DNA of 64,000 bases from Antedon mediterranea (taxonomy: Eukaryota; Animalia; Echinodermata). Location of the stretch: the NCBI RefSeq assembly GCF_964355755.1, contig NC_092673.1:34283648-34347647 (forward strand), read 5' to 3'. The notes beneath the pieces are model-generated. The model saw only the letters and a list, made by a program, of their open reading frames with translations, did not search any database and was not told the origin of the DNA. Of this stretch, positions 10,160 through 57,774 are shown piece by piece; within the stretch, counting starts at the first letter, position 1; each line of letters opens with the position of its first letter. The position numbers and the translations under genes are program-made.

Positions 10160-10375
10160 ACAGTATTATTTCAACTCAAATGTTATTTATTTTCTAAATT
10201 CACCAGGAGCCCAAAAAGGGTAAAAAGCATGCCCTTTACGAAAGTGTAAAGCCAAGGTTCAGCAATTTGTATGGCATCTAATGGGCAGCAAGCATGGCTT
10301 ACTACAAGAAGATGCAATGCCAATTGTAGATGAAAGCAGTCTCAAGTTGAAACGTGACAAGTCAGAACTTGACAA
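10160..10375 (+). pseudogene. Diverged fragment of the recombinase zinc-finger exon with its upstream intron (second fragment at ~9690-9803)
   Basis: cagtattatttcaactcaaatgttatttattttctaaattcaccag|gagcccaaaaaggg matches 25905-26130 with substitutions and deletions. Confidence 0.85.
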
Positions 10376-10627
10376 AAAAAAACTAAGGATGATGGAAGAC
10401 TCTTCAAATGAAGACAAAAAACAAACAACTTTCTAGAAAAATAAGAAATTTAAATTGTCAACTGCAAAGGAGAGAAGGGGTAATTTCTTATTTAGAAGGT
10501 TTGACCAAGGATTTGGAAAGAAGAATAGCTGAAGGGGAAGAACGCCTACAGCGTATTGAACCAGATGAAGAAATTGTGTATATTGATTAAATGACTGATA
10601 ACTGTAAGTAATTGGTTACCTTATTTT

Positions 10628-10872
10628 AAAGGAAGCTTACACCTTTAATTCAGAAGACATCGACAACAACAATGTAGATTGTCTTATAGTTTCGTCGTAG
10701 CCTGCTGTACATAACAGCGACACGATGAAAGTAGCCGACATATTACAATGGAATGACTTCACGTATATTAGAATAAAACCAACAAAAGGCAATCAAACAA
10801 TAATGAAGTATGTCAAAAGATGCAAACGTGTTATTGTAGTTCAAAATTTATTCTTTGAAGATTACGTCGAAT
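10628..10872 (+). pseudogene. SEFIR/TIR-like coding fragment (copies near 95-305, 2251-2310, 8680-8860, 18952-19115)
   Basis: LIVSS..AVHNSDTMKVADILQWNGFTYI...YVKRCKRVIVV resembles the first strand/helix and later strand of SEFIR/TIR; pattern-level only. Confidence 0.35.
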
Positions 10873-11628
10873 GAATGCATTATTAAGCAGTGAACACAGA
10901 AGTGTTGGAAAGGTTCTCAATAGACTTTACATCTAAACATTTGGGATGCAGTATTTGAATTGGAGATTGAGCCTTTTCAATAATATTTGGGATGTAGTAT
11001 TTAGTCCGATAAAACAAGTTTTTCGGTTTACCTTTTGTTAAAATGCTGTCTGTTTTTAATAAAGGTTTAATAACACTTTGGTTACAATTCTTCCTCTTTG
11101 ATCATTTAGCTGTAGGAAACATATAATAGTTATATAATGATGAAGTATATACTGTATATTGTTATATTGTTAGTTATTTCTAAATTATAGAAAAACTGTA
11201 AAATAACATGCTCTTTTGGTTAAGCTTCTGCCTATATGATCACTTTTCTGTAGGGAACATATATTTTTCCAGAATGAGTGATAATAGAAGGATAGAGAAT
11301 CTTGAGAAGGAGGTATACAAGTTGAGAAAGAGGAGAAACTAGAAAAGTCAGAGGCAAAAAAAACCAATGATGGAAACCGATATAATGGCCATTCCATGAA
11401 TGAGCTGAAGTCATGCATATGGCCAGTAGATCCTTTGTTGAATACTGCCCAAAAAAATATTTACAAAATTGAAGAATCAAAAAACAAAAAATCAATGAAG
11501 AGTGGAGACAGGCCTCACCCTCCGCTTGATCACTAGTTTGGAAAATATAGTAATTGTACCCACAAGTTGTACCAAACAATTTTTAAAAAAAATCAACCGC
11601 TTCCGAGTACAACAATAATGGTTAACTT

Positions 11629-11985
11629 TTAAAAATAAAACGCGCGGATTTCGCATACAGCACAACTGCAATACAATAACAAAAACCTATATGCTTTATG
11701 GGACATATTGAACAACTCATCTCCTGCCAATTCACCGCTTTGTTGCTTTCGTCGTCTTTGACGATCTTGTTTGAACTCCGTTGGAATTTCACATTTTGAT
11801 GCAAATTTCTTTGCGTCGCTCATTAATGCCTTGTAATATTCGTCGCTTCTCTTAAATGCCAGTGCTTTTTCAGCATCGTCTATTAGTTGTAATGCTGTAT
11901 CTATTGCAATTCCTCGCTCTTGCAATGCGTCAGAAGCCACACGAATTGTCAAGGATGTCTTTGAGAACTGTAAAAATCCCACAAC
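11629..11985 (-). mobile_element. hAT-family transposase fragment (ZMYM1-like C-terminal region)
   Basis: SDALQERGIAIDTALQLI...KRSDEYY...AKKFA....FKQDRQRRRK is characteristic of hAT transposases just before the dimerisation domain. Confidence 0.7.
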
Positions 11986-13623
11986 CGAGGTAGTAGATCA
12001 CGATATATTAAGATTCAAGTTAGAAGAACCGCAATTTCTTGAAGCCGAACCGTCGCAACTACGAAAAGCGTGGATTGGAATGTTGTCCGAGGGTACGGAG
12101 ATTAAACTGAGAGAACAATTTGGACACGACGTGGACACTTATTTACGCCATATAAGACTGGTAGAAGATGAAATTATAGAAAAGGACAAACTGCACAGAT
12201 TCAGACCATTGGTTTACAAGACTGGTGAAAAGAAACTTTCACGGTGTACGTGTTCAAAACAAACGTTATGAACTTTTTATATGTATATTCATATTATGTT
12301 TATGGTCTTTTATAAATGACATTGTATACATGTGGGTTTTTTTTTTGTGTGTGTGCGTGTGTTGCCAATAAAACGAATGAAATTTAGCCGTCTCGTTCTC
12401 TGTTTTAATCATTACAGACAAGAATAGCATTGATAAACGCGCACTTTATAATGAACACAGATAGTATGTGTACTGTAAGAAAATACATCTCCGTAATTAT
12501 TTTATACACTTCTCATCGAATATAAAGAAAATGTATACGACCGATTCTAGTAAAAAAAATGCCTATAAAGCGCCGCGCTGTTATCATGGTCTACCTGCAT
12601 GCTTAACAATGAAGCGCGCTGTTATCATTGACTTGATGTTATATTTTCATTTAAAAAAAACATCCCTCAAGGAAAATGATAAGAAAAGATGATGGTCAAT
12701 GGTGAGTAAAACAAATATATGTATCAAATACGAGTCTCGAACCCTAGCCTAATGCTACAGCGTTACATTACGAGACTCAAGAACTACCCATTCAGCTGGC
12801 TTACAATCTACCGATATCATAACATTATTACTAATTTATCAAAAACTATAGAGGGCGCGATATCGGCGTAGATATAGAATCTAGGATTGGATTTACGACT
12901 AGGCGCCTAGAGGCAGCCAGTTCAAATTTTTAATATATCAAATATGGAAACGAATTACTATATCACACATATTTGGGATAACAATTAAAAATATTTCTTT
13001 ATAGCTTTGTGACCTGGTGTGTACACTGACACACGCCATGGCCATTTCCATTGTAATCGATAAAAGCAAAGCAGACAGTTTTTATAGTAACAATTATGCA
13101 GTGTTTTAATTTTGGAAATTAAATTCCGTTTATACAGGTGTCATAGTCGAATCATCATTCGATAACAAAATTAATAAGGAGAAGGAGAAGGAGAAAGGAG
13201 GAGCGAGAGAGAACTAAATAAAATTTAAAACATAGCATTTTTTATTCGCTTATATTAAACTATAAATAATAATAATACATATTAAACATAATAATTTCTT
13301 AAAAAGTAATTGACCCTGACTCTTTGGGACCGGTGTATACATTGACCGACGGTGACGCTTATTTCCATATTGCCGATGGTTTTATTGTAACACTGCAGTA
13401 ACTAACGATAGAATTACACCCGTTTGTGCCTGTCATTCGAAAACCCTACGCAAATTAAGCAGGGTATGAGGAGCAAGAGGAGGCACGATATATTCAATAC
13501 GAATTTAAAAGCGCGCACACACACACATTAGTAATCGATAACCATTCATCGGTTTTGTTGTTTGTTGACAAATCGCGTGTAGTTAACATTCATCGCAACG
13601 GAGATGGTATAAAAATAGACAGT

Positions 13624-14277
13624 ATGGAGTTTTATTTCGGTTTTCCTTCACACACCGTATGCAGACCGGAAGGAAACCTGAAATGTGTACGTGTACATCT
13701 GCTACATAGACGGATAGCACACACTATTTTTTAAAAATGTAGGAAAATACATTTATTCACTTCTATATATAAATTACGCAATGTGATCAGTGAAGTAGAT
13801 CACATTAGATGTGCAGCGTACGGTGATTTGGAGTTATCATTCCAAATAGGAGTTCACACAAACATCGACGATACAACAAGAAGTCCTCTGTGTTACTGGC
13901 CGAAATTTCTACTCGAAATGCGTGAATGGATACACATTGCGACTGGTCATAGTTACATTATGGTGACTTTGACAAGAGCAGAGGATTCAGCGGAATGCTA
14001 TCTTAATAATGTACAAAGGAGCGAAACAAGTCCTGTATGCATTATGTCTCTTGGACCTACTAGAATCTGTAGATTCGAACACCGTACAAAAAACCCCATT
14101 AAACCGGTGAACATAAAAATGGAGCATGGTTCGATGCTGGTAAAAAATTCTGAAACAATCAATGAATGGTCAAGAACTGTACCAAAGACAGATGGAATAG
14201 GAAGCACCAGCATATTAACATTTATGAACATTGAAAGGTATAGTAACATCAATATTACAACAAACAATGTATTGTAG
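13624..14277 (+). pseudogene. Intronless AlkB/ALKBH2-like 2OG-Fe(II) fold gene, catalytic motifs absent, one in-frame stop
   Basis: ATG 13624 is in frame with ORF 13783-14277 apart from TAA at 13732. ALKBH2-like blocks AAYGD, W..FL.EMR, IMSLGPTR..RF, MEHGSMLV, W..TVPK, ILTF. TATAAAA at ~13608. Confidence 0.7.
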
Positions 14278-15502
14278 TAAATTCTTGGAGCGGTAACGTT
14301 AAATCATGAACGTCAGCCAGTCACTAGAAGACACACACACATCCCGCATGCAGAGCAGAACGAAACATGAAAATATATCTGCTACATTTTCAACTTAATA
14401 ACCTTTTTCATACATTATGATTTACTTTATTATAACTCTAAAATATGAAAGAAATAAATCTTTATTTGAATTGAATTGAATTATTTTAATACCAATGGTA
14501 GGAAACTAGTATTTGGACGTTTATGAACTTTAATTTATTAATGCATCATGTGACAATTTGAATTATCTTTATTTTATTACAAAATACTAATAAATTTTTC
14601 GAGTGTAAAACAATCAAGCATAGATTCTCTTTATTACTCTCAGTGTTTTATGTGTGTGAATTATGCAGTTCTGATCCTGATAGAGCAGTAACACGCATCC
14701 GTATCCAATTTTGAAAGTCAACGACGACGTACCGCTCATAGTAAGCGTCGAAAAATCCAGATCCGAATACAATGCGGTGGTGGTGGCCAAAGAAGAAGTT
14801 TCATCTGCGAAACGACCATGTAGATGATTTTTGTTTTTTTAATAAATTAGTAGTATAGTAGTAGTAGTTGCACAGAAATGGATTGAACTTCTGTATACAT
14901 AATTTCATGTATACTTTTACGTAACAGTATAGCCAATATAACTTGTGATTTTTTACTTACTTACATTAATTTATTGAATATTGTTATGTGTTATGATGTG
15001 GACTTTGTTTTGAAATAAACGTGAATTGATTGAATTGGATTTTATAAATTATAGATATAGGGTACAATACTTTGTTGTCACTGAATCATGGGCATTAGTT
15101 TTGTTTACCTTATGCGAAGACTCCTTCAAGAAAGAAGAAAAGGAACAATAAAAAATGTGAGGCTGAACCTTGTGGTGGAACAGCAAATGAATCATGGATT
15201 TCGTGTGACATCTCTGGCAGGTGGCATCACCAAAACACCTGCACATCCCCCATGCATAGGCTTCTTCAGGAAGGAAAAAGGGAACCCTTAAAAAGTGTGA
15301 GGCTGAACCTTGCAATGGAACTGAGAGTGCCAACGAATGGATATATGTCCTCTCACATATCATACCACATAACGTGGCAGAGTAATTCAACAGCATAAAT
15401 AAATTTCCCTTTAGCATAGTAACTACATAGCCTTTTTGGGTTTTCATTGATGTCACCATTATACTAAGTTTAATTTACTGCATAGACTGCCTGCATACTG
15501 TA

Positions 15503-15672
15503 TATGGTTGAGATTCTGCTTATGTGACCACCTAACTTTAGGAAACATAACATGATACAATTTAAAGGAAATGATTTATTCAATGTACTAGATCTTACAG
15601 TAGGTTCGTTACCTTTAAAAGAATAAGTTAACCTTCTTCTTGAGATTGCTGAACTATCTAAATTGAAGAGTT
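15503..15672 (+). pseudogene. DED-like coding fragment, different paralog
   Basis: WLRFCLCDHLTLGNIT*..FKGNDLFNVLDLTVGSLPLKE*VNLLLEIAELSKLKS, with stops and a frameshift. Confidence 0.6.
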
Positions 15673-16014
15673 GTGATGTTGAATGAATATCATTAGGTAA
15701 ATTGACGTTGATGGAATATTAGAATTGAAGGATTCTACAGTACCAGCCAGAAAGTTTGATCTCGACTCAGGTTGATAAAGACAGCATGGAGAGAATGGAA
15801 GACAACCAAGGTTGTTAAAATTCTGCCTATTTGATCACATACCTTTAGGACACATTATCAAGTTCTCTTGAACTTGAATAAAAATTTATTGAGGTACAGG
15901 TACAGTAATACTATTCTGCCACCTCAATGGACCCTTGGAAGGAGCCACAAAATACCGGATATAGGTTTGTCCACGGTGATACTGATTTGATCCTGTTAAC
16001 GAGATGAAGATAGA

Positions 16015-16368
16015 AAGTGGCAAGAGAGAATAGTGTACATGGCTGGTGAGATCCACCCTAGCCATAACACTAGGTTTTGGAAAGCAAGGGAGGTACAGGC
16101 AAGTCGACTTTGGCAAGACAACAACAATAAGACCGCCAACGTTTTATTTGCTCACAATGGGGAAAGAATTGTCGTTTTTGACTTTTGCAGAACTAATGAG
16201 GACAAAGTCAACTACCAAGTAATTTGAAGCCATTAAAAATGGTTTTATTTTAACTCTAAACGAATCAATTACAAAAGTATTTGATATTCCACATGTAATT
16301 ATTTTTGCTAACTTTGCACCATGACAAATTTAAGTGTTGATAAATGGATAATCCTTCACGTTTATTAA
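16015..16368 (+). pseudogene. CRESS DNA virus-type Rep, SF3 helicase domain remnant
   Basis: Across frameshifts: Walker A ESKGGTGKSTLAR, Walker B IVVFDFCR, NYQVI-EAIKNG, motif C PHVIIFANFAP and LSVDKW. Confidence 0.85.
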
Positions 16369-19300
16369 CCTATCCAGAACAACTAATTACACTTAGTCTT
16401 GAATATCATCAAATCACCAGTTTAATGACCCGAGAGAGATAGGTTGATCTTATAAATCCGAGACAAAGCCTAAAATCCTCATATGAAGAATGGAGCAAAT
16501 GATTAAATGCACAAGATGATGAAGGCTATATAGTGTCCTATATAACCTTTTATTAGAAATTGCCAAGTACAAGAAAACACTGAACATAATTTATTCAATG
16601 CACTAAAACTTTGGTCACCATAGATCATTCCTACTAAAATCAACCTCTCTTAAAGATTACTTAGCATTAATCCAAGTTTGATATTCTTTTTTGTTGATCC
16701 TATAAAAATAATAAAATAATAACTCAATTAAATTAAAAATATGTTTTGCAAATGCTCTATTCACATTCTAAAGCTGACAGGTGACCTTGTTTTCAATCTT
16801 CTTGACCTTTCACCATGTCGTTCCACTGTTCAAACCTGGCTTTTTCTTTCTTGGTAATTTGAGTGTTCTAATTTTGCATTGTGGTTGAGTTGAATTGCAT
16901 GATCTATGTCCGATTGATTGATAAGCAAGTTGAGATATTAAACTGGTGTTTTCTTTTTTACTTCTTGTTCTCCGATATAAATATGGTCACAGTTTAACAG
17001 GCCACTTTAATGCAGCCACAACTTTCCATTTTATCTTTTGGATTTAGTTATATGTGGTATAAAAAGTCTTTGTTTCGAGGGTTTCCATGAAAATAATAGA
17101 ACACCGCTGAATCTTCTCAATTATTTCTTTTGTTTGAAGTTGCCTTTTGTAGGACTACCAAAGCACAATAATTACAAGGCTCATCGGATCTATTGATTTA
17201 AAAAAAAAATAAAATCATCTTCTCTACGTTTCAGCATCTTTGTATCTTATGTGCAAGAGTTACCATAGATGGTGAGTTACACTAATTGGATATCATGTGA
17301 TTGTTGACTTCAAATAGTTATCCAGGTTAATTTCCATAATTTTATTGGTCTGTACAGGTTGACTTAGTTGTTAGTCAATGATTCTTCAAATCTTTCTCAA
17401 ATATAGGTTTGATGATGACTGCCACTGATGTAATCACTTGTTATTCCATAATGTTCTAGCCATTCCATAAACTTGTTTGTGATAATAAGCGTCTTCTTGT
17501 TGCATCACTGCTGTCAACAACACACAGGTGATGTTAGACCAGACTAAAAATAACAGCACCAGTCTACTTGAGAAAGCAAAGAGCATTCGCGAAACATAGT
17601 TATAAGGTACTATATTTTTGTACTTAAATTCTTTATTTTGTATTAGATTTAAAAAAAAGATAAAACTTAGGGTATCGTTAAGCAATATCTACAGAGGTTG
17701 ATTTTAGTAGGAATGATCTACAGTAATTCAAGTTCTAATGCATCAAAAAAATAATGTACAGGTAATTTTTATTCTCAACCTAAAAAGACAAATACCTTTT
17801 TTATGTATTTTTCAGTGAATCGTTTAGTCACTTGATTTATTTAATAAACTTACTGAATTTACTGGAGTAAACCTTCTATTAGAAATTGCTAAACTACCAA
17901 AATTGGAAGAACGTCGCAAATACAATTGCAAATCGCAAATACCATGAAAATGTCAAAAAAAAGAAAAAGCTAAAGGAGCAATCAGTTTGTAATATCCGTA
18001 AAATGCATTTCCAAAATACCTAATATATTCGATTCAGACACGAATGATGAAACGTTTAATCACTGAATGGAAATGATTTATTCAATGAACTACAATTTAC
18101 TGGAAGTAAACCTTCTATTAGAAATTGCAAAACTATCCAATTTCGAAGAATGCATAAAAACCATCACTCAACTGCACAAAGTGAATGGCTGAGCAAGACA
18201 GATCATCACAAAAATGATGAAGAAATTTAATAGGTAAAATTCGTCACAACCAATCTTTTATTAGACATTGCTAAACTGACAAAATTGAAGACTGCTACAG
18301 GTCTTTTAACAAAAATATGAGGATTACAACAGTAACACACTTTGAATTATCAACTGATCCAAATGCAGCAGAGGTACCAACACTGTCTGTGGAGAAGCTC
18401 CTGTAGTAAAGAAATTATGAGATATTCTTCCCAGAAGAATATCTGCTTATTAACGGAAGAGATTGAGTCTGATAAAGAAAGTTGTCACTGATAAGAAGTG
18501 AACACAAAAGTGTACAGGTAATTTTTATTCTCAACCTAAAAAGACAAATACCTTTGAAGGTAAGAATCCTGTAGTAAAGAAATTATGAGATATTCTTCCC
18601 AGAAGAATATCTGCTTATTAACGGAAGAGATTGAGTCTGATAAAGAAAGTTGTCACTGATAAGAAGTGAACACAGAAGTGTTGGAAAGGTTCTCAATAGA
18701 CTTTACATCTAAACATTTGGGATGCAGTATTTGAATTGGACATTGAGCCTTTTCAATAATATTTGGGATGTAGTATTTAGACTGGAGATAGAGTCCGATA
18801 AAACAAGTTATTACTGTATATTATTATTTCTTGATGTGGCAGAAAAATTGCAAGCGTTTTTGGAAGAAAATACTGAAAGAAAGCACAATGAAATGTGACA
18901 ACGTTTCTGAGATATTGTTTGAAGTAGAGAGAGAAATCTCGACAAAAAAGACAGTTTCGTCGTGCTTTGCTGTACATAACAGCGACACGATGAAAGTAGC
19001 AGACATATTACAATGGAATGGCTTCACGTATATTAGAATGAAGCCAACAAAAGACAATCAAACAATAATGAAGTATGTCAAAAGATGCAAACGTGTTATT
19101 GTATTTCAAAATTTATTAGTGTTGGAAAGGTTCTCAATAGACTTTACATCTTTTCAGTAATATTTGGGATGTAGTATTTAGACTGGAGATAAGAGTCCGA
19201 TAAAACAAGTTTTTCGGTTTACCTTTTGTTAAAATGCTGTCTGTTTTTAATTGAATGTAGGAGACATAATGAAAATAATTTCTTTTAATGCACAAGATTG

Positions 19301-22300
19301 TAATAAAGGTTTTTACAAAATATTTAGCAAAAAGATTGCTGTGAATAATATTAAATATGATTAATTAATTACAATGGAATGGCTTCACGTGTAATGAAGC
19401 CAACAAAAGACTTTACATCTAAACATTTGGGATGCAGTATTTGAATTGGGACAAAAATTCACACAAAAGAGATTGACTGTGAATAATATTAAATATGCAT
19501 ATTATGGAATGTAAAATATTTGTATTATATTAAAAGTTCTACTTAATATTGAGATGATAAAAAAAAGTAGCACTTTGGTTACAGTTCCTCCTGTTTGATC
19601 ATTTAGCTGTAGGAAACATATAATAATATGAAGAACTAATGATGTATTCCATGCACCAGAAGATAAAGGATATATACTGTATTATTTATTTATTCGGCAT
19701 GACTAAAAGCTTTATAAGTGAACACAGAAGTGTTGAGAAGGTTTACTTCATCAGAATTCAACAGACTTTACATCCAAAGGTTCCATTTCTTTCCACAGTT
19801 TCAGTCAGTGCTTGATCATGGTGCAAAATGATTTAATAATTTGCTACCCAACCTAAGCAGATGCGATAAAGGAGTTGAAGAGGAAGCAAAGACTTTTAAT
19901 AATTTGTTTAACTGTAATGTTTGCACTGGTTATTATCCCATTTTGGTTAAGATTCTTCCTATTTGACCACTATGACATATTATAGAATGTAAAATATTTG
20001 TATTATATTAAAAGTTCTACTTAAGATAAAAAAAAAAAGTAACTGTATTTTTATTCTCAACCTAAAAAGACAAATACCTTTTTATATGTATTTGAATTGG
20101 ACATTGAGCCTTTTCAAAACCATTAGGGATGTAGTATTTAGACTGGAGATTAAGTCCAATAAAACAAGTTTTTCGGTTTACCTTTTGTTAAAATGCTGTC
20201 TCTTTGATCAATTAGATGTAGGAGAAATGAAAATGATTTCTTTTAATGCACAAGATTGTAATAAATGTTATAATTATATATTAATATTTAGCAAAAATTC
20301 ACACAAAAGAGATTGCTGTGAATAATATTAAATATGACATATTATGGAATGCAAAATATTTGTATTATATTAAAAGTTCTACTTAGATAAAAAAAAAAGA
20401 TAATGAAGATACTGTAAACAAGACACATACCACTGTGGTGGGGAGATACAGTATGAAGAATTCCATAACTTTGTACGGTGCTTAATCGAAGAAAGTGCCG
20501 ATCAGAAAAATCTAATTCTGTTGCCACCGCCATTGCTGTGAATCTATGGGAAATGCATCAAAGTGGAAAATTACTCCTTTTGTTAAAATTCTGCCTATTT
20601 GATCAATTAGATGTAGGAGACATTTGGGATGCAGTATTTAAACTAGAGATTGAGCCTGGTGAAAAAAAACCTTTTTCAACTAATATTTGGGAAGTAGTAT
20701 TTAGACTGGAGATAACAAAGCTTAGAAACTAGTCAACACAATATTTTAAAAAGGTTGTGTTTATTCCAAACATTTGGGATTTAGTATTTAACTTGGAGAT
20801 TAACTAAGCTTTTAGAAACCATACAAAATAAAGATCAAAAGACAATAGCTGATCTATAGCTAATTATAGCTATTTTGTGTCACCTATACATTTTGCTAGT
20901 AGATAGGACAAAAGACATCACCATTGGTAGAAAATTTGTTCATTGCAGAAGATGAAGAAAATGACATTAGTTATGGCATCATAATCTAATGAATTACACA
21001 AACTTAATTTCAATTACAATATTCAAGAGTTTCAAAACGATAAGAATTTTGAATCACAGCAAACCATTACCAGTTCCATACCATTTTAAAATCATCTTAC
21101 TGCGATTTATATCGTTGATTAAATATAAAGACTTGTCAAAATGTTTCAGTCACAATAACCTTAGTGATATCACAGGTTTTTACCAAGGCGTTATCATAGA
21201 TGGTCAGTGAATGAGCTAAAAGGAAAGTTTTGCTACAATTATCTTAATATCAGAAACAATAATCTCAGCAAAATCAAGATTTAACTAAATTGCAGGTCAT
21301 CTGTGAAGCAATATCACAAAATAACTAGATTTTCTCTATATCTCTCATAATAACCTCAATGACATCAAAGGTACTTAACTTGCCATAGTACCGTTTATTT
21401 CTCCAAGAAATGCAACATGGGTGGGTTCAATCGCCAACACAACAAATTTCAATTGATGTATATTTGATGTATAGGCCTATATTTCCATTATGCAGATTCC
21501 ATAATATCATTCATTGTTTAGTTAATCAAATTCAATCAAATGAATACATTTCAGAATTTAATAATTTTATAGGATATTGTACTTGTAGTGCAAAGCATAA
21601 AACAAAATTGTCAAAAAGAAGTTGGTGGCATTGGGTAAAGAATTAAAATAAAACATAGTTTTAAACAAAGGTAATTTAATTTATTTTGAAATAGAGCAAC
21701 ATAATTGGCCAATAGCTAGCCTCTTCGGATTTGTTGTACTGCCTATAATATCGCACACACAGTAGTTTTCGAGCAGCCTTCCTATCCGAAGAGTCTATTA
21801 AGTCCGAAACGAAAGGATGGAAGAACTATTGTACGGAAAACCCGAACAGATCTGTTTTGTACGATATGATATTGTATAAGGTGATAATATGTATTAAATT
21901 GCAAGATTTTCATAAAAAAAATATTTTATTTTTGTTCTGTGGTATATTATTTTTTTGGTTGTTCAAAAAACACAAAATTATGCCAGATTATGCTAAAAAC
22001 GGCTAAATAATGCAGCGGCATTATGCCAGATGCCGTGGGCCTCCAAATATGCCAAAAAGCATAATAATGCCAGAAATGGCAACTATGATTTGAGCACAAG
22101 CTAACTGTTTATATTTAACGTTCAATCAATAAGATAGATAACCTAAGTTAACCTGTTACATTTCGATTCAAACCTTGCTTTGAACGGGTGATCAGGGCCT
22201 CCTACACATCTGTTCAAACCTTGCTTTGAGGTGCCTGTACACAACAGTGTGGTTCAAGACTTGATGCAGAATGATCTAGAACCTACAGACAAAGAATTAA

Positions 22301-22845
22301 CTGAAGGCTACTCTGTATAACATTGAAAAGCAAATAATGGACTCAACCATTCTTAAAATAGGGGTTTGGATAGTCTTGGTTGAACAATTAGGTCACATTG
22401 TTATTTCCTATGTACAGTATTGTAAATTACTCAACACAGCCTTCTGACCATGGAATTAGATTGAAAGAGTGCAGTAAGGTTACAATAATGGAATTAAGGA
22501 AAATATTGTGTAGCATACAACCAATACATTCCAGTTTGTTCTATGATTTTAATTGTTTGAATTACGTTAGGCTTGCTATTAGCTATTAAATATGTTACTG
22601 TATATAGAAAATCTCTGATAGGATATTTGCCACCACTGAAAAATAATACTACAGTTGACTATGCTATTTTCAGTACATGTCTAGCTCATCTGCTAATTTT
22701 TTTAAATAAAGAAAACTTAAAATCATAAAGAAAAAAAATGATTGCCCTAAACAATACATAATGTTTCATAATTAAATACAAGCTGTTAGGAATCTCCACT
22801 TTAAAAAAGGGTGCTAATGATTCACATAAGAATTAAAAGGACGTT

Positions 22846-24850
22846 AAATAATAAAAATGTATTGAAAATATGCTAATTAATTTGTTTATAATTGATTTTA
22901 ATTAATTAATGAAGAATTTTTTTTTTTTTTTGGTTTTTTGTTTTTTTTTGTTCATATTTATTCATTCATTCATTATTATATTATTCTATTTGACTTTTTC
23001 ACTTCAAAAATTAATTTTTAAATTACAATTATGGGACATAAGGATAGGATTTTATACAGTAAACCATATTTTTAACCCTGAATTTATGGTTAAAATATGG
23101 TATTAAGGCTCTATGTTCCAAACTCTAGGGGGCGCATCGGGGTTATGTTATGGTTGGAGCGGCGTGATGTCCCATCATGAAGTAGATTATCGTTTTATTT
23201 TGCGACAAGCAATATATTATTTAGGGAAACTGAGTTGGTGGCTGGTTAAGGAATAAATACTTTTAAAATATCTTTTTTTCGATTTCATACCGTTTTCGAC
23301 TGCAAACCATTATGTCGATGGCTTGTTTTCCTGGTATCGCCCTCTTTTTAGGGCTTTAATTTTCTAAACTATAGAGGGCCTGGCAAATAAAATATTGAAA
23401 TAAATAATTTAATATCAAATTTATTTTTATTTTATTGTTTGATTTATATTATATATACATTATATTTATTGTAAAACTTACAGTTAATGAAATGGACATG
23501 ATAATATGCCCAGCCAGACCAAACAAAATGTGCTAGGCCCAGGCCTAGCCTATAAAGTAGGCTAGATAGGGCGGCCGGTACTACTTCTGTAGGCTTCAGA
23601 AATAACCAATATAGAATTACAGTCTAAATTTAATTAAAATTCAATTATGTTTTAATAATATATATGTTTTTAGCATCTATAGTTTTATAGAATTTTGCTG
23701 ACTTGGTAATTTTTATGAAAATCATTATTATATGTTACTTTTTTAAACAATTTCAGTACCGGTATATTAACAAAAAAGTGTATAGGCTTCAGAAATTACC
23801 ATTGTAGAATTACAGCTTAAATTTAATTAAAATTCAATTATGTTATATTGATATATATGTTTTTAGCATCTATAGGTTTATAGAATTTTACTGGCTTGGT
23901 ACTTTTTAGGAAAATCATTACCGGTATTAATATTAATTAAATTTAAGTTCATTAAACCATCTTTATGACCCGGGGCTCATTAAACCATATTTTAAGATAA
24001 GATTAGATATAAGATAATTAATAATTAAACCATATTTGGGAGGGGGCTTAAGTCCATTAAACCATATTTTAACCCTGACTTCAGGGGTATAATATGGTAC
24101 GTGGCTTTATGGCCCGGGGATCAAGTCCAATAAACCATATTTTAACCCTGACTTCAGGGGTATAATATGGTACGTGGCTTTATGACCCGGGGATCATTAA
24201 ACCATATTTTAAGATAAGATAATTAATAATTATAATTAATAGTTAATAACAATTAAGTAGATAAGATAAGATAATTAATAATTATAATTAATAGTTAATA
24301 ACAATTAAGTCCATTAAACCATGTGGGAGGGGGTTTAAGTCCATTAAACCATATTTTAACCCTGACTTCAGGGGTATAATATGGTACGTGGCTTTATGAA
24401 CCCGGGGATCAAGTCCAATAAACCATATTTTAACCCTGAATCCAGGGGTATAATATGGTACGTGGCTTTATTACCCGGGGATCAAGTCCATTAAACCATA
24501 TTTTAACCCTGAATTCAGGGGTATAATATGGTACGTGGCTTTATGACCCGGGACTCATTAAACCATATTTAAAGATAATAATTACAATTAATAATTAATA
24601 ACAATTAGGTCCATTAAACCATATTTGAACCCTGAACTCAGGGGTATAATATGGTTTACTATATAAATTCCTATCCTTATGTCCCATAGGCCTAATTGTA
24701 ATTTGTAATTTAAAAATTAGTTTTTGAAGTAAAAAAATCAAATTGATTGGAAATATGAACAAAACAAAAAAAATAAATTCTTTATTAATTAATATTAATT
24801 ACTGTATAAACAAATTAATTAGCATATTTTTCAATAAATGTTTATTATTT
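22846..24850. repeat. ~2 kb segment bounded by ~250-bp imperfect inverted repeats, containing a palindrome array
   Basis: 22846-23100 is the reverse complement of ~24617-24850 (e.g. atgggacataaggatagga / tcctatccttatgtcccat). Also an internal direct repeat, 23588-23745 vs 23780-23925. Confidence 0.8.
24049..24657 (+). repeat. Array of ~73-bp units each with the imperfect palindrome ACCATATTTTAACCCTGA(A/C)TTCAGGGGTATAATATGGT
   Basis: Full units near 24049, 24123, 24338, 24411, 24484, 24608; a related copy at ~23060 and a half copy at 24920-24952. Confidence 0.9.
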
Positions 24851-24989
24851 AATTGATTTAATATAATTGCCATAAAAATTAGATGATTTTCGGTTAGGGT
24901 TAGGAGGGGGAGGGGGTTTAAGTCCATTAAACCATATTATAACCCTGAATTTCTTCCTGGACAGTGTGGTGCTGGCTCTATCATCTATG

Positions 24990-25026
24990 TGATTGGTCAA
25001 TTTGATCTATTTCATTGATTGGTCAA
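24990..25026 (+). promoter_or_regulatory. Putative recombinase promoter: tandem inverted CCAAT boxes
   Basis: Two tgattggtcaat motifs about 120-150 bp upstream of the ATG at 25146; also present in copy 1 at 2317-2353. Confidence 0.4.
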
Positions 25027-25145
25027 TGCAAGAAACTTCAATGACAAAAACTTCAATTCAGAAAAAAAAACTCTCATTCCAGTCACACCTACTATAGTAG
25101 TACTACATTAATACACAGAGAATACTGCAGTAGACTCAAGGAGGT

Positions 25146-28100
25146 ATGGCAGATAGAATAGTAAGATATTTCTGTTGTATTTTTTAATTGTTGTAAATTA
25201 ATTATAACCTACTGTAGCTAAACTTTAATGAAGATTAGCTACTGTGGGTTAGTTTAACTAATAAGCAAACTAATAAAGTTTGGGTACTGTACCTAAATTT
25301 GGGCATGTTATAAGTGTTTAAAAATGAAAAACAATTTTATTTTATACTGTTTTTATTTTTTTACCACTAGCCTAAATCAACATTTCTTAGTGAAGAAGAG
25401 ATTGAGATGGATAGCAGTAGTAGTGTTAGTGACGACAGCAGATCCGATTCAGAGTCCGATAGTGGTAGCGATATGTTTGGCAGTAGCAGTGATGTAGACG
25501 ACAATATTAATAAGGTACATTTTTTAACAATTTCATCAATAGAATTGTCAAAAATGTTGTAAATGTATGTTAATAATCGCATTATTGACGCATTGATCCA
25601 TTATTTTAACATTTTTTACTTTACACTTTATACTATTCCGTAAATGTCCTACAAAATACAATTAGGGGCGCAGCTTATTCAATCGATAATTTTATATTTC
25701 TAATAATTATTGGAGAGTGACGCTAATTAGGTCATTAACAGTATACATTGTCGATGTAATGAATAATGGTTATACTAATAATTGATAGGGTTGGTTTGTT
25801 GGGACTTGATAGGGCTTGGGTGGTATTTAGTAAGACCTAGAACAGTGGAGAGAGTGAAACTCGAATTGTGCAGATGTTAAATTATAAAATCATAACTTTA
25901 TTGTCACTGTATTATTTCAACTCAAATGTTATTTATTTTCTAAATTCACCAGGAGCCCAAGAAGGGTAAAAAACGCACAAGACAATGCCCTTTGCCAAAG
26001 TGTAAAGCAAAGGTTCAGCAACTTGTACGGCATCTAATGAGCAGAAAGCATGGTTTATTACGAGAAGATGCAATGGAAATTGCAGATGAAGGCAGTCTCA
26101 AGTTGAAACGCGACAAGTCAGAACTCGACTCTTGTCCGTTTCCGGGATGCAGCATGAAAAGAGCAAGAGTTGGAAGGCATCTCACTCAATTTCACAAAAT
26201 TGATAAAGGTATGTTGTATTAATTTTGATTAGTCTTTCAATCCTTTATTCAATAGATCATTATTAAGAAATATTGAGAACTAAGTAATAGAGGGTGCAAT
26301 TTAATTCTTGTGCACACTTTAAAATTTACCATGTTCAGATCCCAAATCATTGAATTGCGTTGAGTTACCAAATCGTTGAAGTTGAGAATAATGATGTTGA
26401 TTGAGCCGGACTGTTAATATTTACACATTTTAAGCGACCGTTCTTGGTTTTTTAGTTCTTTTGAGTGTTGCTAGGATACGCTTACGTGAAAATGGCTATA
26501 ATCATTAAACTATAAATATTAAATGACAATAGTCATTATTTCAAACTGCATCATACAGTTATGTTATTTGTTGTAGAATCTGTTAAAAATTCTTTCAATA
26601 AGTTTAGTTGTCCAGTGGCAATATTTCACTCCACGAACATCCTTAAACAAAATATACAAAATAACTACAGTATACTGTAAAATTGATTGATATTTCATTT
26701 TTCTATAATAGGCACTTCTGAATACATACGATTAATGAGAAAAAATAAAACAGGTAAGAAATAATATATAAGTCATATTTGGATTTTCTGATAATTCATT
26801 AGGATACTGGTGTATTGACCATTCTGTTTCCATTTTAATTTCTTCTTACTCTAGCCATTAACATTAATTACAATTAATGTATGATTAGTGGCTAAGGTGC
26901 TCACCTTTCAATCCCAGGGTCCAGTTCAGAAAAGTTGGCTATTTGGCTTTCCTTGGCCATGTGCCTAAATAAATAATTAAAAAATAATGGAATAAAATAA
27001 TATTGAGAAATCTAATAAAAACAATAATTACTAAAGATTTATTCTTATTGTACAACAAATTAAACATTTTGTATGATGTTTTTTTGTTCTTTCAGCTAAA
27101 TCATTATCGGAAGAAGAAGCGCCTTCTACATATAAACGAGTCGCCCTATACGATAGCTTCAAGAGGTTTAAGAAATACCTAACCAACATGGATGGAGGAC
27201 TCCTAGAGGAGGAGAACGCTCAGCAACATATTGTTCGCCTCCACAGGCTTTCCTCACTTGTTGGTGGTTTGGACGGTATGGTAAATGCTGACAAAATGCG
27301 CGAGTGTTTTACAAATTTACATGTAAAGTCACTAGATGGAAAGAAACCGATATCGGTTTCAACTACACTAGTGTACATTGATTCATATAGAAGGTTCTTG
27401 AAGTTTGCTATCTTAGCCAAAGTTGCTACTTTTCAGGATTTTGCCACTGACCTTTTGCTGCAGACCGAGAAATGGAACTCGGCTCTTGGTCGGCAGAAAA
27501 GGGTTCGGCACGCAGAGGTGGTTGCAACTGATATGCAGGAAAGGCTTCGTCATGACGAATTCCACCTGCTTACCAGTAGCAACAACCCTGCAAAAGTCCA
27601 GGCTTTAGAAATTCTGCGCAAGTCTGAGGACGAAGACTTCATCTGCGATGAGTCGGAATTTGTACGAGTCAGAGATTATATAATGATGCTGCTCGTATTA
27701 AATTCCGACCAACGCAGCGGTTGTCTAAAGAATCTCACTTGCAAAGAGATTCTAAATGCCGAGAAAAGAGGAACCCAGTGGATGATCCTAGCAGCTAGAC
27801 ACAAGACTACGTCTACTAGTGGAGCTGCTAGGATCATTCTCTTGGACGATGATTATCGGTTGGCTGAGAAATTTATCCAATGGATTCGGCCGTGTGTTAA
27901 TGACGAATGCGAGACGCGTTACGCCTTCACTAATTTTGTGGATGGCAAACAACTCTCAAGTTCTGTCATTAGCAAACGGCTGAAAACGGTTTGGATAAGT
28001 GCAGGCAACAGGAGTACGTTTAGCTGCACGAGGTTGCGTAAATTTTACACAACTTCGTTGAGGAGACGGGACCCTACTCTAAGGGAAACTTTGGCCTCCC

Positions 28101-28252
28101 ACTTAACCCACAAAGCAAATACAGCTGATAGATTTTACGAACTACAGCAGAGCGTAGATAATAGCCTAAACGTAGCCCGTCATCTACGCTCTCTAATATC
28201 ACTATCGGATCGGATCTGCGGCTACTCTCACTCCATTCTGAATGTTATTTAA
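25146..28252 (+). CDS. Spliced tyrosine recombinase with N-terminal acidic tract and two C2H2-like zinc fingers (Crypton-like), about 537 aa
   Basis: Five phase-compatible GT-AG exons: 25146-25160, 25371-25514, 25953-26208, 26712-26753, 27096-28252 (1614 nt). Fingers CPLPKC..RHLMSRKH and CPFPGC..RHLTQFH. YR motifs QRSG (Arg), HKT (Lys), RLRK and HLTH..TADRFY (His, Tyr). Confidence 0.85.
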
Positions 28253-29374
28253 GTTCCTCTTCATTAAGAAATGCTGATTAAAACAGTTTTTAAAAAAACA
28301 GTAAATAAAACCAGTTTAAAATTAAAATTAAAATTGTTTTTCATTTTAAAATAATAACATGCCTAACTTTAGGTATGGAGGTTGGGGGTTCATATAAGCT
28401 AACCACCCAAATTTATGTCTTGTTTGTTTTTTTTTTTTGTTTTTTTTTTTAATATAAAGTGTAAATTATACAAAATAGGATAGTGTTAATTGCATTTGGT
28501 TAAGACGATTGTGCCGTAAAAAATGTTACATAATGGATCAATGCGTTTAATAATGCAATTATTAAAACATAGATTTTCAACATTTTTTTTACGACAATTC
28601 TATTGATGAAAATGCAATTACTCTTTCTAATGTTAAAAAATGTACCTTATTGTTGTCGTTTGAATATGTATCACTTGAATCAAAAGGGGGTGGTGGGGAG
28701 TATGGAGGGACGTTCAAACATATAAAAAAAAATTTCCTTCATACCTCCCCTTTAAATATTGGTTTTTGTATTTTTGTATAATGAATAAATTACTGAATAA
28801 ATCTGGCTCTGAACCAGTTGAGATTACTACACAAGTTTATGATTATTTTATTCTGTTTAATGTTGCAATATCTTAGTTGCTTTACTACAAGTTGTTATAC
28901 AGTATTATTCATTTCAACCTCAACTGAGTCCAATGTCTTTTGAAAATGCTTCGGTATCTAACAGTATTTAATATCGACAATATAGATATAATGAGACTGG
29001 TAACGACGTGACATGTTGTTGATGATTAATTTGATGATGATTTGATGATAATAATAATAATAGACTTGCATCATTTCAATGTTTGTTATTAAATATATAT
29101 TTTTTTATATATTTAAAACCAACCTTTATTTAACGCTACAGATGTTTGACCTGGAAAATTAAAAGGTTGTCACGGGAAAACAGCGATTATTTTATTCTAG
29201 TTGCTTTACTACAAGTTGTTATAATTCATTTCAACCTCAACAGAGTCCAATGTCTTTTGAAAATGCTTCGGTATCCCTAACAGTATTTAATATCAACAGT
29301 ATAGATATAATGATCAGACTGGTAACGACGTGACATGTTTGTTGATGATTAATTTGATGATGATTTGAATGCAG

Positions 29375-30485
29375 ATGGCACGATACATTTTAAAAGCACC
29401 GGCGTATACACCCAAAGTGGCTTTATATGAAAATTTAGGATGGATACCCTTAACCGTATCTCATAAGATATTACAAACTAAAATTCTTTGAACGTATAGT
29501 CGGGTTGAATGAGAAACGATGGCCCAACCTGTATTGTACAAGACTAATGCTTAATTACAACACAAAAGAATTACGGTTTAAATTCCATAGTTGTGTACGA
29601 ACCACTTTCTGTAGATTTGTTATTAAAAATTGCACTATGGAGAATTGGTTTAATTTACTGAAACAAAATATTTTAGATAACGTAATATTAATCAATGGTC
29701 AGAGGACCTTGTATCTAAATCGACGCTGTCTTTTTATGCAAAGTTAAAATCAAAGCCGGATCTTGAACAATTTTAACTTGATAAAACAAATTTTAATGGT
29801 GCCCGTCTTAAATTTCAAGCCCGTTCCAATTCTCTACCTTTAAATTTTAAATTAAGTAAATGGACCGTGGATAATGATGGTCTCTGTTCATTATGCAACT
29901 TTGGAGATATAGAGGACATATCTCATTTTTTATTTAGTTGTGATGCATTGTGTAAGAGAAGAACAGCTAAATATACTTAAACAAGATTTAATTTATCATA
30001 ACGAGTTAGATGTTTGGGAAATATTCTGGAAAAAATTCTATATGTTATGGGGACAGATACACTTCCCCTCAGTAATAATGTTCTATAAGTATTGTGTTTT
30101 GACAAATTTTGTAAAGTATACCTAACAAGATCATGGAAAATACGAAACAATCTTAACAACTCGCAGATAGCATGTAATGCTTTGTATTGTTGCGGTATAG
30201 AGTTTATACTGACATCTCTATATTTTGAGCTCTTTTTTTTATATTTTCTATTTTCAATTATTACTGTACTACTTAAATTGTTTGTCTTTCTTTTCTTTTC
30301 AATTCATTGTATTTTGCTTAAGTCACGTACGACTAGGACAGCGATCGAGTCAGTCGGCGTTGTTGACTCTAGTTTTTATTTTTTACTTTTTGTATCTGTT
30401 GAATGTCTATTTGTATATAGAACACACCGTGTATGAACGGGTGCCACCATTGTAAAGGTGTAGTTTTAATAAATTATATCTTATA
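29375..30485 (+). mobile_element. 5'-truncated non-LTR retrotransposon, ORF2 C-terminus (truncated copy at 6270-6820)
   Basis: Frameshifted ALYENLGW...FQARSNSLPL...CSLCNFGDIEDISHFLFSC (CCHC knuckle), followed by a 3' UTR ending in AATAAA. Confidence 0.8.
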
Positions 30486-37260: not shown

Positions 37261-37744
37261 AAAGATTAAATCTATAGCCCAGAAGATGCTGTACTTAGTA
37301 CTTACAAAACCTACGCCTAACCTTCAACACTTGCCTCCACTCCGATCCCCTGCTGCTGACGAAAAGATACTTGCTCTCTCCTCACACGCAAACGTGTCCA
37401 TGACTAGACTATACCAATTTCCCTTATGGGGAACCAGTACTACCTATGTATGTAGCATAATGCACTACGCATTATCGACGCATATCCTCTTTGGAATAAA
37501 ATATCAGGCATTGTGCTTAATGTGTTTATACCAACAAAACAAATATAAAATTGAAGTACCTTCAAATTTTTAAAAAAATTAATAGGCCTCTTGGTTGATA
37601 CCATTATCATTTATTTTTTATTCCCTATCTCGAGGTACGGTATTCATAGCGTCATTTCGACGATCAAGCATTCTCTACTTCTACGGAGCGCCATTTATGC
37701 CTTTATTTACTTACGAAATAGAAATAGTACTTCGGTAGCTGCTC

Positions 37745-40700
37745 CAGTGGACCAAATTTAGCACTAGTGGAGCGCAGTAATATAAAATAGAAATAAGTTA
37801 CTAATTTTAATATCTTTTCGTATGGTAATACACTGTGCTCAAGTGGACACAATTTGGCTCCAGTGAGGAGCACAGTGATATAAAATAGAAATAAGTCACT
37901 GAATATTAGGCCTAATATCTTTTCGTACTGTATGTTAATACACTGTGCTCAAGTGGACCCAATTTGGAGCCAGGGGAGCACAGTGATATAAAATAGAAAT
38001 AAGTCACTGAATGTTAATATCTTTTCGTATGTTAATACACTGTGCTCAAGTGGACCCAATTTGGCGCCAGGAGAGCACAGTGATATAAAATAGAAATAAG
38101 TCACTGAATTTTAATATCTTTTCGTATGTTAATACACTGTGCTCAAGTGGACCCAATTTGGCGCCAGGAGAGCACAGTGATATAAAATAGAAATAAGTCA
38201 CTGAATTTTAATATCTTTTCGTATGTTAATACACTGTGCTCAAGTGGACCCAATTTGGAGCCAGGGGAGCACAGTGATATAAAATAGAAAAAAGTCATTG
38301 AATTTTAATATCTTTTCGTATGTTAATACACTGTGCTCAAGTGGACCCAATTTGGAGCCAGGGGAGCAGCACAGTGATATAAAATAGAAATAAGTCATTG
38401 AATGTTAATATATTTTCGTATGTTAATACACTGTGCTCAAGTGGACCTAATTTGGCGCCAGTGGAGCACAGTGATATAAAATAGAAATAAGTCATTGAAT
38501 GTTAATATATTTTCGTATGTTAATACACTGTGCTCAAGTGGACCTAATTTGGCGCCAGTGGAGCACAGTGATATAAAATAGAAATAAGTCACTGAATGTT
38601 AATATCTTTTCGTATGTTAATACACTGTGCTCAAGAAGTGGACCCAATTTGGAGCCAGGGGAGCACAGTGATATAAAATAGAAATAAGTCACTGAATGTT
38701 AATATCTTTTCGTATGTTAATACACTGTGCTCAAGAAGTGGACCCAATTTGGAGCCAAGGGAGCACAGTGATATAAAATAGAAATAAGTCACTGAAAGTT
38801 AATATCTTTTCGTATGTTAATACACTGTGCTCAAGAAGTGGACCCAATTTGGCGCCAGTGGAGAACAGTGATAAAAAATAGAAATAAGTCAATTTGGAGC
38901 CAAGGGAGCACAGTGATATAAAATAGAAATAAGTCACTGAAAGTTAATATCTTTTCGTATGTTAATACACTGTGCTCAAGAAGTGGACCCAATTTGGAGC
39001 CAAGGGAGCACAGTGATATAAAATAGAAATAAGTCACTGAAAGTTAATATCTTTTTGTATGTTAATACACTGTGCTCAAGAAGTGGACCCAATTTGGCGC
39101 CAGTGGAGAACAGTGATAAAAAATAGAAATAAGTCACTGAATTTTAATATCTTTTCGTATGTTAATACACTGTGCTCAAGTGGACACAATTTGGAGCCAG
39201 GAGAGCACAGTGATATAAAATAGAAATAAGTCACTGAATGTTAATATCTTTTCGTATGTTAATACACTGTGCATGCTCAAGTGGACCCAATTTGGAGCCA
39301 GTGGAGCACAGTGATATAAATAGAAATAAGTCACTGAATTTTAATATCTTTTCGTATGTTAATACACTGTGCTCAAGTGGACCCAATTTGGAGCCAGTGG
39401 AGCACAGTGATATAAAATAGAAAAAAAGTCACTGAATTTTAATATCTTTTCGTATGTTAATACACTGTGCTCAAGTGGACCCAATTTGGCGCAAGGAGAG
39501 CACAGTGATATAAAATAGAAATAAGTCATTGAATGTTAATATATTTTCGTATGTTAATACACTGTGCTCAAGTGGACCTAATTTGGCGCCAGTGGAGCAC
39601 AGTGATATAAAATGGAAAAAGTCACTGAATTTTAATATCTTTTCGTATTTAATATACACTATGCTCAAGTGGACCCGATTTGGAGCCAGGGGAGCACTGT
39701 GATATAAAATAGAAATAAGTCACTGAATTTTAATATCTTTTCGTATGTTAATACACTGTGCTCAAGAAGTGGACCCAATTTGGAGCCAGGGGAGCACAGT
39801 GATATAAAATAGAAATAAGTCACTGAATGTTAATATCTTTTCGTATGTTAATACACTGTGCTCAAGAAGTGGACCCAATTTGGAGCCAGGGGAGCACAGT
39901 GATATAAAATAGAAATAAGTCACTGAATGTTAATATCTTTTCGTATGTTAATACACTGTGCTCAAGAAGTGGACCCAATTTGGCGCCAGTGGAGAACAGT
40001 GATAAAAATAGAAATAAGTCACTGAATTTTAATATCTTTTCGTATGTTAATACACTGTGCATACTCAAGTGGACCCAATTTGGAGCCAGTGGAGCACAGT
40101 GATATAAATAGAAATAAGTCACTGAATTTTAATATCTTTTCGTATGTTAATACACTGTGCTCAAGTGGACCCAATTTAGAGCCAGTGGAGCACAGTGATA
40201 TAAAATAGAGAAAAGTCACTGAATTTTAATATCTTTTCGTATGTTAATACACTGTGCTCAAGTGGACCCAATTTGGCGCAAGGAGAGCACAGTGATATAA
40301 AATAGAAATAAGTCATCGAATGTTAATATATTTTCGTATGTTAATACCTGTGCTCAAGTGGACCTAATTTGGCGCCAGTGGAGCACAGTGATATAAAATG
40401 GAAAAAGTCACTGAATTTTAATATCTTTTCGTATTTAACATACACTATGCTCAAGTGGACCCGATTTGGAGCCAGGGGAGCACTGTGATATAAAATAGAA
40501 ATAAGTCACTGAATGTTAATATCTTTTCGTATGTTAATACACTGTGCTCAAGTGGACCCAATTTGGCGCCAGGAGAGCACAGTGATAGAAAATAGAAATA
40601 AGTCATTGAATGTTAATATATTTTCGTATGTTAATACACTGTACTCAAGTGGACCTAATTTGGCGCCAGTGGAGCACAGTGATATAAAATGGAAAAAGTC

Positions 40701-41120
40701 ACTGAATTTTAATATCTTTTCGTATTTAATATACACTATGCTCAAGTGGACCCGATTTGGAGCCAGGGGAGCACTGTGATATAAAATAGAAATAAGTCAC
40801 TGAATTTTAATATCTTTTCGTATGTTAATACACTGTGCTCAAGTGGACCCAATTTGGCACAAGGGGAGTACAGTTATATAAAATAGAAATAAAGTCACTA
40901 CATTTTAATACAATACCGTATCTCATTTGTATCTAATACACTGAGCTCAATGGACTCAATTTGGCACGAGCGGAGCGGAGGGATATAAAATAGAAATAAA
41001 ATCACTAAAATGTTATATCTCATTCGTATGTTAATAAACTGTGCTCAAGTGGACCCAATTCGGCACCAGTGGAGCACAGTGATAGTAATAAGTTACCGGT
41101 ACTGAATTTTAATATCTTTT
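37745..41120 (+). repeat. ~97-bp tandem satellite, about 34 copies
   Basis: Unit cactgtgctcaagtggacccaatttggagccaggggagcacagtgatataaaatagaaataagtcactgaatgttaatatcttttcgtatgttaata; more units at 42630-42902 and inverted at 46450-46620. Confidence 0.97.
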
Positions 41121-42129
41121 CAATTCACATTTATTTACTCATCGTTTATAAATACAGTTTCATAGCATAAATGATGGCAAGGATCCTGCATGGAGAAGTT
41201 TACACTTCTGTTTTCGCAGGACCCTTTTACATAAAAAACATAAAACAATAAACACAACATAATAGATACAAAATTTAAAAAAACATTTCCTATATACATT
41301 TTAGAGTTGTTCATCAACAAAAAGCATTAGTGTTTTTATAATATCATTATTTATACATTTTATGAAGATATTCAGTTTATTACTTCCAGTACATGTGGAT
41401 TCTTTCTTTTATTATAGCAAAACTATGAATACATATAATATAAAACAGGCTATGTGTGTATACTCGCACACACCAACACAACGCATAATATATGCATATA
41501 TATTTTATGAGTAAAGCATTTTAAGTTCTGTAATTCGTATGCTCTGTGCTCAAGTGGACCAAATTTGGCGCCAATTAAGCACATCGTCACATACAAAAAC
41601 ATTAAGAAAATATACGTCTGGAATTCAAAATGCAGCTATATTTCTCAAAATTTGCTCAGCCCCAAGCATGGTGGGGTACTGAAGATTCTTATACATGTTG
41701 TTTGAAAAAATAATAGATTCAGGAGAACCTTGCAGCTCTATTTTAAACAGTTTGGTATGCCGTGCGTTGTGTTATGCAAATGAGTTTGTGCAGGTGTATT
41801 ATGGTGAAGATGGTGTGTAGTCATTCGCGGTCAACACGCCACACTGTTAAATCTTGATGTTGTTAATCTTTACATTAGAAGATTGTTCAAATCATGTAAA
41901 TAAAATATTTTCCTCAACAACCCTCAAAATATCTCTCTTTCAAAATGAAATAAAAATAATATTCATTATTTTCCATTAAAAAAAGAATTCTGTAGAGGTT
42001 CGAACCCGATCTACTAGAGCTGAGAGCACCCAAAGCTGAGCATTACCCTTAGGCCACAAAGTAGTACATGAATGAACAGATGATAATAGTCTATTTATAC
42101 GTGTATTACGTAATTCATCATCACTTAAA

Positions 42130-46818: not shown

Positions 46819-55723
<8,905 letters not shown>

Positions 55724-57652: not shown

Positions 57653-57774
57653 GCAAGTAAATTGAGTTAATTGCTCATCCCTCTGTGTCATTAACATCAA
57701 TATATTTCTCAATAGATATTTTGGAAATACATCCAAACTTAAACTCAGATAGAATATGAATGTAAAGTGCTTCT

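Follow-up and report, generated by a model that had tools for sequence, protein, structure and literature searches.

Introduction

Cryptons generally have terminal direct repeats of 4-6 bp. Those of the A, I, F, and S groups encode a tyrosine recombinase (YR) only, have no terminal inverted repeats, and are described by a circle model of movement. Their enzymes carry an R-H-R-Y tetrad, and animal CryptonA and CryptonI lack a C-terminal domain (Kojima and Jurka, 2011; PMC3212892). In the available text of the same source, DUF3504 stands for CryptonA-derived genes, GCR1_C for CryptonF, and YR sites consist of two inverted arms around a 6-8 bp spacer. CryptonV elements are cnidarian, encode a YR, and are microsatellite-specific, as stated in a passage that cites Kapitonov and Jurka (2012, Repbase Reports) (PMC8869645); the name also appears in tables of two other papers (PMC5753468; PMC4455052). 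DNA transposons may carry introns (PMC13465315). The telomere-specific and 28S rDNA-specific YRs of nimaviruses combine C2H2, SAM-like, and YR domains, are multi-exon in some cases, retain five of seven key residues, have non-viral relatives in decapods, and were placed apart from the Cryptons sampled (Kawato et al.; PMC10871703). In the available parts of the literature searched, CryptonV is a name or one sentence, and the domain layout considered here is described only for nimaviruses.

The window, which is the whole stretch of 64,000 nucleotides of Antedon mediterranea DNA analyzed in this study, is AT-rich, repeat-rich, and animal-like. The original prediction, made from the letters of the window, placed an apparently intact five-exon zinc-finger YR gene at 25146-28252. 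The five-exon spliced YR gene is real. Its family is most likely a thinly described but known kind, CryptonV-like, of which the window gene is a further member. This likeness was missed by the original prediction, as was the replacement of the C-terminus.

Materials and methods

Protein relatives were sought among 1.84 billion representatives at E<=1e-3, and the best 150 of 854 clusters were studied. Metagenome loci were the best 80 of 116, represent one subgroup, and fell into 39 groups. A FastTree tree was built from the window YR, 22 loci, and whichever of the top 44 hits had a core of at least 300 aa; only this family was included. X5 is a run from another sample and another study, and was taken as RNA-like by a program's guess. 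Contig depth was not taken as copy number.

Results and discussion

Gene structure and splicing

The exons of the YR gene and the evidence for each are as follows.

25146-25160, + strand: exon 1, five codons starting with ATG; an X5 contig terminates at 25160
25371-25514, + strand: exon 2, Ser/Asp-rich tract; an X5 joint spans intron 2
25953-26208, + strand: exon 3, basic patch and two C2H2-like fingers; X5 joints on either side
26712-26753, + strand: exon 4, helix after the second finger; X5 joint, contiguous in relatives
27096-28252, + strand: exon 5, core-binding and catalytic YR domains; profile, model, and relatives

As modelled originally, the four introns are GT..AG and the spliced product is 537 aa long with zero stops. 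The introns have pyrimidine tracts of 12-14/17, and the GC content is 40-44% in exons 2, 3, and 5 versus 24-29% in introns. The Ser/Asp tract, the basic patch PKKGKKR, and the two C2H2-like fingers (residues 65-86 and 114-134) are also as first described.

Contig joints of X5 excise introns 2 and 3 exactly at GT..AG, which shows that both are spliced as modelled. Another X5 joint, 26748>27094, fits intron 4 to within 5 nt at the donor side. For intron 1, X5 contigs terminate at the donor (25160) and 30 nt past the acceptor; X1 and X8 contigs continue through these break points. The junction check by RNA-seq was thus exact for two introns, near-exact for the fourth, and a matter of contig breaks for the first; introns 1 and 4 are supported by X5, the former indirectly. 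None of the X5 splice joints was among the joints listed for X1, X6, and X8. X5 covers all bins of 15.5-30.4 kb and contains the high-copy repeat at 19-fold, versus 119-fold in X1; such coverage and under-representation of the repeat fit RNA with intronic reads. In comparisons with relatives, exons 3 and 4 align as a single stretch, and the N-terminal 170 aa matches 37 of the best 150 of 854 clusters (best E 1.5e-15). Spliced transcripts of the YR gene seem to exist.

Fold and active site

Sequence searches with the protein returned little. The Pfam profile PF00589 (Phage_integrase) matched at E 7e-5, under the cut-off; NCBIfam gave a weak XerA match; PHROGs gave nothing useful; a PDB sequence search found no match; word-indexed protein searches found zero or one; and tblastn against phage DNA found one match, at E 0.07. 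DUF3504 and GCR1_C had no hit in the window protein or in 46 relatives, and DUF3435 (Starship-like) had none in the window protein.

When built with the alignment of relatives, the structural model reached a pLDDT of 92.6, with values down to 55 and 44 over the final 20 residues; from the single sequence alone it reached 34.8. The best Foldseek match was XerA (E 4.5e-7), followed by XerH, Cre, and lambda Int, and the TM score against Cre was about 0.5-0.6. The model shows a predicted tyrosine recombinase fold with core-binding and catalytic domains, as had been proposed. The two-domain fold and the order of the catalytic residues resemble those of Cre, XerA, XerH, and lambda Int in this model; the differences lie in an identity of 11-15%, the fingers, the introns, and T/N in place of the first His. 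The key positions, with counts from the best 150 of 854 clusters, are as follows.

27713-27715, + strand: Arg359, first catalytic Arg; present in 148/149 relatives
27803-27805, + strand: Lys389, HKT motif; present in 147/149
28028-28039, + strand: T-x-x-R467 where H-x-x-R is canonical; Arg in 146/148
28109-28111, + strand: His491; present in 143/145
28136-28138, + strand: Tyr500, predicted nucleophile; present in 138/142

The catalytic R, K, R, H, and Y are in canonical order in the window protein, in agreement with the original assignment, and all five are kept in 133/141 relatives that span the positions (best 150 of 854). The replaced first His (TRLRK) had been raised as a reason to doubt activity, a concern that comparison does not support: among the same 150 clusters, the first position of HxxR is T in 118, N in 20, S in 6, A in 3, R in 1, and His in 0/148. 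Judged from these alignments, the missing His is a family-wide trait and TRLRK is normal for the family. The concern over SDQR was well placed. Position 357, just before Arg359, is Ala, Gly, or Cys in 141/149 relatives and Asp in 0/149 (best 150 of 854). The window copy has Asp357, and the second copy has Gly357 (SGQR), as noted originally; both alleles occur in X5, only Gly in organism B, and Asp in the listed X1 contig.

Replaced C-terminus and signs of decay

Similarity to relatives ceases near residue 520, where the following two segments are relevant.

28197-28375, - strand: diverged copy, in inverted orientation, of 25290-25467 (end of intron 1, exon 2); alignment score 139 versus 43 for the best of 100 shuffles
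28449-28659, - strand: diverged copy, in inverted orientation, of 25498-25706 (end of exon 2, start of intron 2); alignment score 156 versus a shuffle maximum of 56

The last 18 codons and the stop (28197-28252) are the opposite strand of the inverted intron 1/exon 2 copy. The two pieces are out of colinear order and hence do not represent simple terminal inverted repeats. X5 contigs cross the region with few differences; the arrangement therefore exists outside this assembly as well. Among the best 150 of 854 clusters, at least 100 aa forming a conserved domain follow the Tyr in 88/138 Tyr-bearing relatives, and 37 follow it in the window protein. Profiles of this domain matched no window frame of at least 15 aa, and the stretch from Tyr500 to the inverted tail has no consensus splice donor. 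By eye, the domain resembles Myb/HTH; six examples gave no matching Pfam hit. At the level of aligned sequence, the window copy is shown to be without the family C-terminal domain and to have a replaced end, so that "apparently intact" no longer describes it. Fewer than 100 aa follow the Tyr in the other 50/138 relatives (best 150 of 854), many of which are probably partial; the short form may therefore be natural.

Among the best-supported variants listed, the synonymous share of differences was 7/21, 5/12, and 4/10 versus 0.27 for neutrality, and none was significant. The listed copy of organism B is a colinear gene with introns; it has a 42-nt deletion and departs from the window sequence at 28027, before R467. 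A loose end of X5 at window position 27706 indicates that a diverged YR paralogue with a similar motif is present in this RNA-like run. The window copy is probably a remnant in decay and not an active mobiliser.

Copies of the locus within the window

Three further copies or fragments lie in the window.

2315-6848, + strand: broken second copy of 24988-29960, 95-98% identical
9689-9804, + strand: intron 2/exon 3 fragment, 93%
10152-10373, + strand: intron 2/exon 3 fragment, 86%

The second copy, of about 4.5 kb, has two damaged donors and no exon 4, and its exon 5 carries a frameshift besides two in-frame deletions. It starts at a junction with another repeat, includes part of the downstream high-copy repeat, and has a left junction that is also in X1 contigs. 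It reads as a segmental duplicate. The window locus yielded no element ends and no intact cargo, and a microsatellite tract, an end motif, direct repeats, and an empty site were likewise not found there. Neither an RT domain nor a viral family was detected among 89 stop-to-stop frames of at least 72 aa in the window, with two tandem arrays left out; the statement that no RT is adjacent and that the gene is not DIRS-like is borne out in these frames.

Two ATTGG motifs (CCAAT-box-like) at 24992-25022, 125-155 nt before the ATG, are kept in both copies by eye.

Palindromes upstream of the gene

An array of palindromes lies 0.5-1.1 kb before the ATG, inside a pair of 260-bp inverted repeats.

24043-24951, strand not assigned: six 38-bp imperfect palindromes in 73-nt units plus a half copy
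22844-23106, - strand: copy of 24614-24852 in inverted orientation, 72% identical and carrying an additional palindrome

Each palindrome has two 15-bp arms around 8 bp, a loxP-like geometry, and six of them correspond to a z of about -5, none being expected by chance. The array is low in depth, like the YR gene, and at least its last unit is linked to the YR gene in organism B. No such site lies downstream of the YR gene in the window, and the duplicated segment begins beyond the array, at 24988. Single spaced palindromes turn up often near relatives: 16 loci with 169 kb yielded 25, with no array and no palindrome shared. Relatives have no counterpart of the array and do not support it as a recombination site; any link between the array and the enzyme would be conjectural.

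A family of relatives near simple repeats

The window YR has 854 relative clusters at E<=1e-3. Among 30 representatives looked up, named relatives came from a crinoid, corals, hydrozoans, jellyfish, a scallop, and several Nematostella loci; the closest was the crinoid protein, an annotated gene product with 45% identity. Their names are only "uncharacterized" or "XerC/D". Two or more fingers are present in 36/38 relatives with a long N-terminus (best 150 of 854), and one relative matches Phage_int_SAM_4 weakly. These relatives, the fold, and the lack of an RT support the original description of a poorly characterised animal YR mobile-element gene.

Most of the 80 metagenome loci have a single long uninterrupted YR frame. 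No recurring polymerase, capsid, or linked RT was found near them; RT-like and RNase H frames do occur, at varying places and on varying strands, as host repeats would. Neither viral contigs (single-protein and alignment scans) nor metagenome contigs in the single-protein scan with the window YR contained a relative.

Among 18 groups with at least 3 kb downstream, eight have a tract of (AG)n, (TTAGGG)n, (TAAG)n, or (ATC)n at 3.1-5.2 kb after the stop, and ten have none in reach. Nine tracts were counted in 124 kb of downstream sequence, whereas 108 kb of upstream sequence had none (binomial p of about 0.005 with kinship disregarded). At the TTAGGG loci, the shared sequence follows the tract and could be part of a different repeat. 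Loci L001, L037, and L049, with YRs 49-57% identical, have a common motif directly before (AG)n that scores 77 versus at most 53 in 5000 random draws. The three fall in one clade (support 0.97), which also holds members without a seen tract. In this AG clade, one upstream exon is common to four groups and additional exons to two of the four, giving a unit of about 9-11 kb. The accessory exons are upstream of the YR, not downstream, and no 5' end was seen in any relative. With the tract-bearing relatives the window gene shares 25-27% identity, and in the tree it sits on a separate branch together with the crinoid protein; given this distance, the targeting of the relatives need not apply to it. 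The suggestion that the gene mobilises a large cargo-bearing unit thus has some footing at the family level, in one clade with conserved upstream exons. It is not borne out at the window locus, where no ends were found, the duplicate is broken, and nothing upstream matches the accessory exons.

Two further features were seen near relatives. A shared exon at L028-L030, L034-L037, L040, and L041 lies 2.4-5.3 kb upstream of the YR and is dsRNA-binding-motif-like (Staufen_C, E 0.011), with low-complexity repeat frames further upstream. At L065:6258-11081, downstream of a YR relative, is a 1608-aa frame with no Pfam hit.

Interpretation and alternatives

The reading we prefer, and regard as reasonably probable, is that the spliced YR gene has lost its C-terminal domain and likely represents a CryptonV-like DNA transposon copy in decay. 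In its mode of action the enzyme would resemble a site-specific recombinase of the Crypton type. The likeness to CryptonV lies in a YR without an RT, in relatives that are rich in cnidarians, including several Nematostella loci, and in relatives that abut microsatellites. The comparison is by description only, and the window copy differs in having no microsatellite, ends, or C-terminal domain. CryptonA, I, F, and S, which lack terminal inverted repeats, are comparable as eukaryotic elements with a YR only.

For intact relatives, the predicted cycle is excision as a circle and insertion at a microsatellite. Following the circle model as given in the available text of PMC3212892, the enzyme of intact members would bind the element ends and cut through a Tyr-DNA intermediate, and the released circle would then be recombined into a simple-repeat target. 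The paired fingers and the C-terminal domain may help to read the ends or the target. In the window copy, a rearrangement would have swapped the 3' end for inverted pieces of the 5' part of a paralogue; the locus would then have been partly duplicated and would now drift near-neutrally while still transcribed.

A broader proposal, which we put forward tentatively and consider rather improbable, is a large animal lineage of YR elements of about 10 kb and more, in which each subclade has its own simple repeat. A His-less site, paired zinc fingers, and upstream accessory genes would be common to the lineage, which would include or underlie CryptonV and would have donated the telomere-specific integrases of nimaviruses. 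If true, the lineage would amount to a naturally occurring collection of animal recombinases with repeat specificity. The window copy matters little alone; the family, with at least 854 clusters, an active site without the canonical His, and signs of repeat-specific ends, matters more. The AG-type loci L001, L037, and L049 offer a concrete end motif and target for site-specific integration by an animal YR.

Domestication, in which the host retained a zinc-finger DNA-binding gene from a transposon, as with the Crypton-derived DUF3504 genes, is unlikely. A host gene would fit the presence of four introns, the transcription, the apparently low copy number, the annotated status of the nearest relative, and the occurrence in organism B of a colinear, intron-containing gene. 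However, DNA transposons may also have introns (PMC13465315, available text), the variants listed show no significant synonymous excess, the listed copy in organism B is broken, a broken duplicate and two fragments lie nearby, and DUF3504 has no hit.

It is also quite unlikely that the gene belongs to an active, naturally short autonomous element with the upstream 38-bp palindromes as recombination sites. The complete catalytic core, the splicing, the z of the six palindromes, and the linkage of the last unit to the gene in organism B agree with this view, as does the arm-and-spacer form of YR sites (PMC3212892, available text); P0004 and P0005 likewise end soon after the Tyr. Against it are Asp357 and the borrowed tail, the absence of a downstream palindrome in the window, a duplicate that begins past the array, and the common occurrence of palindromes near relatives, none arrayed or shared.

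It is very unlikely that the gene encodes the integrase of a large DNA virus (or a virus-like element) that became endogenous, akin to the nimaviral telomere- or rDNA-specific YRs. By description, in the available text of PMC10871703, those enzymes share with the present family the layout of C2H2, SAM-like, and YR domains, an incomplete set of canonical residues (five of seven), several exons in some cases, and apparent simple-repeat targeting. The family differs in that viral genes are lacking at the window locus (no viral family in the 89 frames) and near relatives, with no recurring polymerase or capsid at the 80 loci and no relative in viral contigs. Host DNA rich in repeats flanks the YR gene, with a spliced NMNAT-like gene next to it, and no nimavirus was among the 50 BFVD matches listed, which were 10-17% identical. 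A fragment of a YR retrotransposon (DIRS/Ngaro), compatible with the YR domain only, has almost no probability given the introns, the absence of RT/RNase H linked at the window locus, and the varying places and strands of such frames near relatives; with no RT and RNase H on the same element, DIRS/Ngaro/VIPER is largely refuted.

Other features of the window

The high-copy repeat at 29370-30480, partly inside the duplicated segment, has a CxxC..H..C motif, which we take to be typical of LINE 3' ends. Segments 1-2311, 8675-11120, and 15400-20900 consist of shuffled low-copy modules that organism B joins in many other orders; some translate to a decayed repeat that is death-effector-domain-like by eye, with no Pfam hit. 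An AlkB-like 2OG-Fe(II) oxygenase fragment (E 0.011) is at 13735-14277 (+ strand), and a presumed hAT-transposase-like fragment with no Pfam hit is at 11629-11997 (- strand). A 97-nt satellite of about 35 units occupies 37740-41121, with inverted outliers near 46470-46710. The spliced host gene at 48340-55720 (+ strand) has one exon matching CTP_transf_like (E 8e-4), and from its motifs we assume it to be an NMNAT. Exons of a SET-domain gene (PF00856) at 59200-60390 (- strand) and beyond are convergent with it, and young tandem arrays with 47-nt and 28-nt units lie at 57464-58333.
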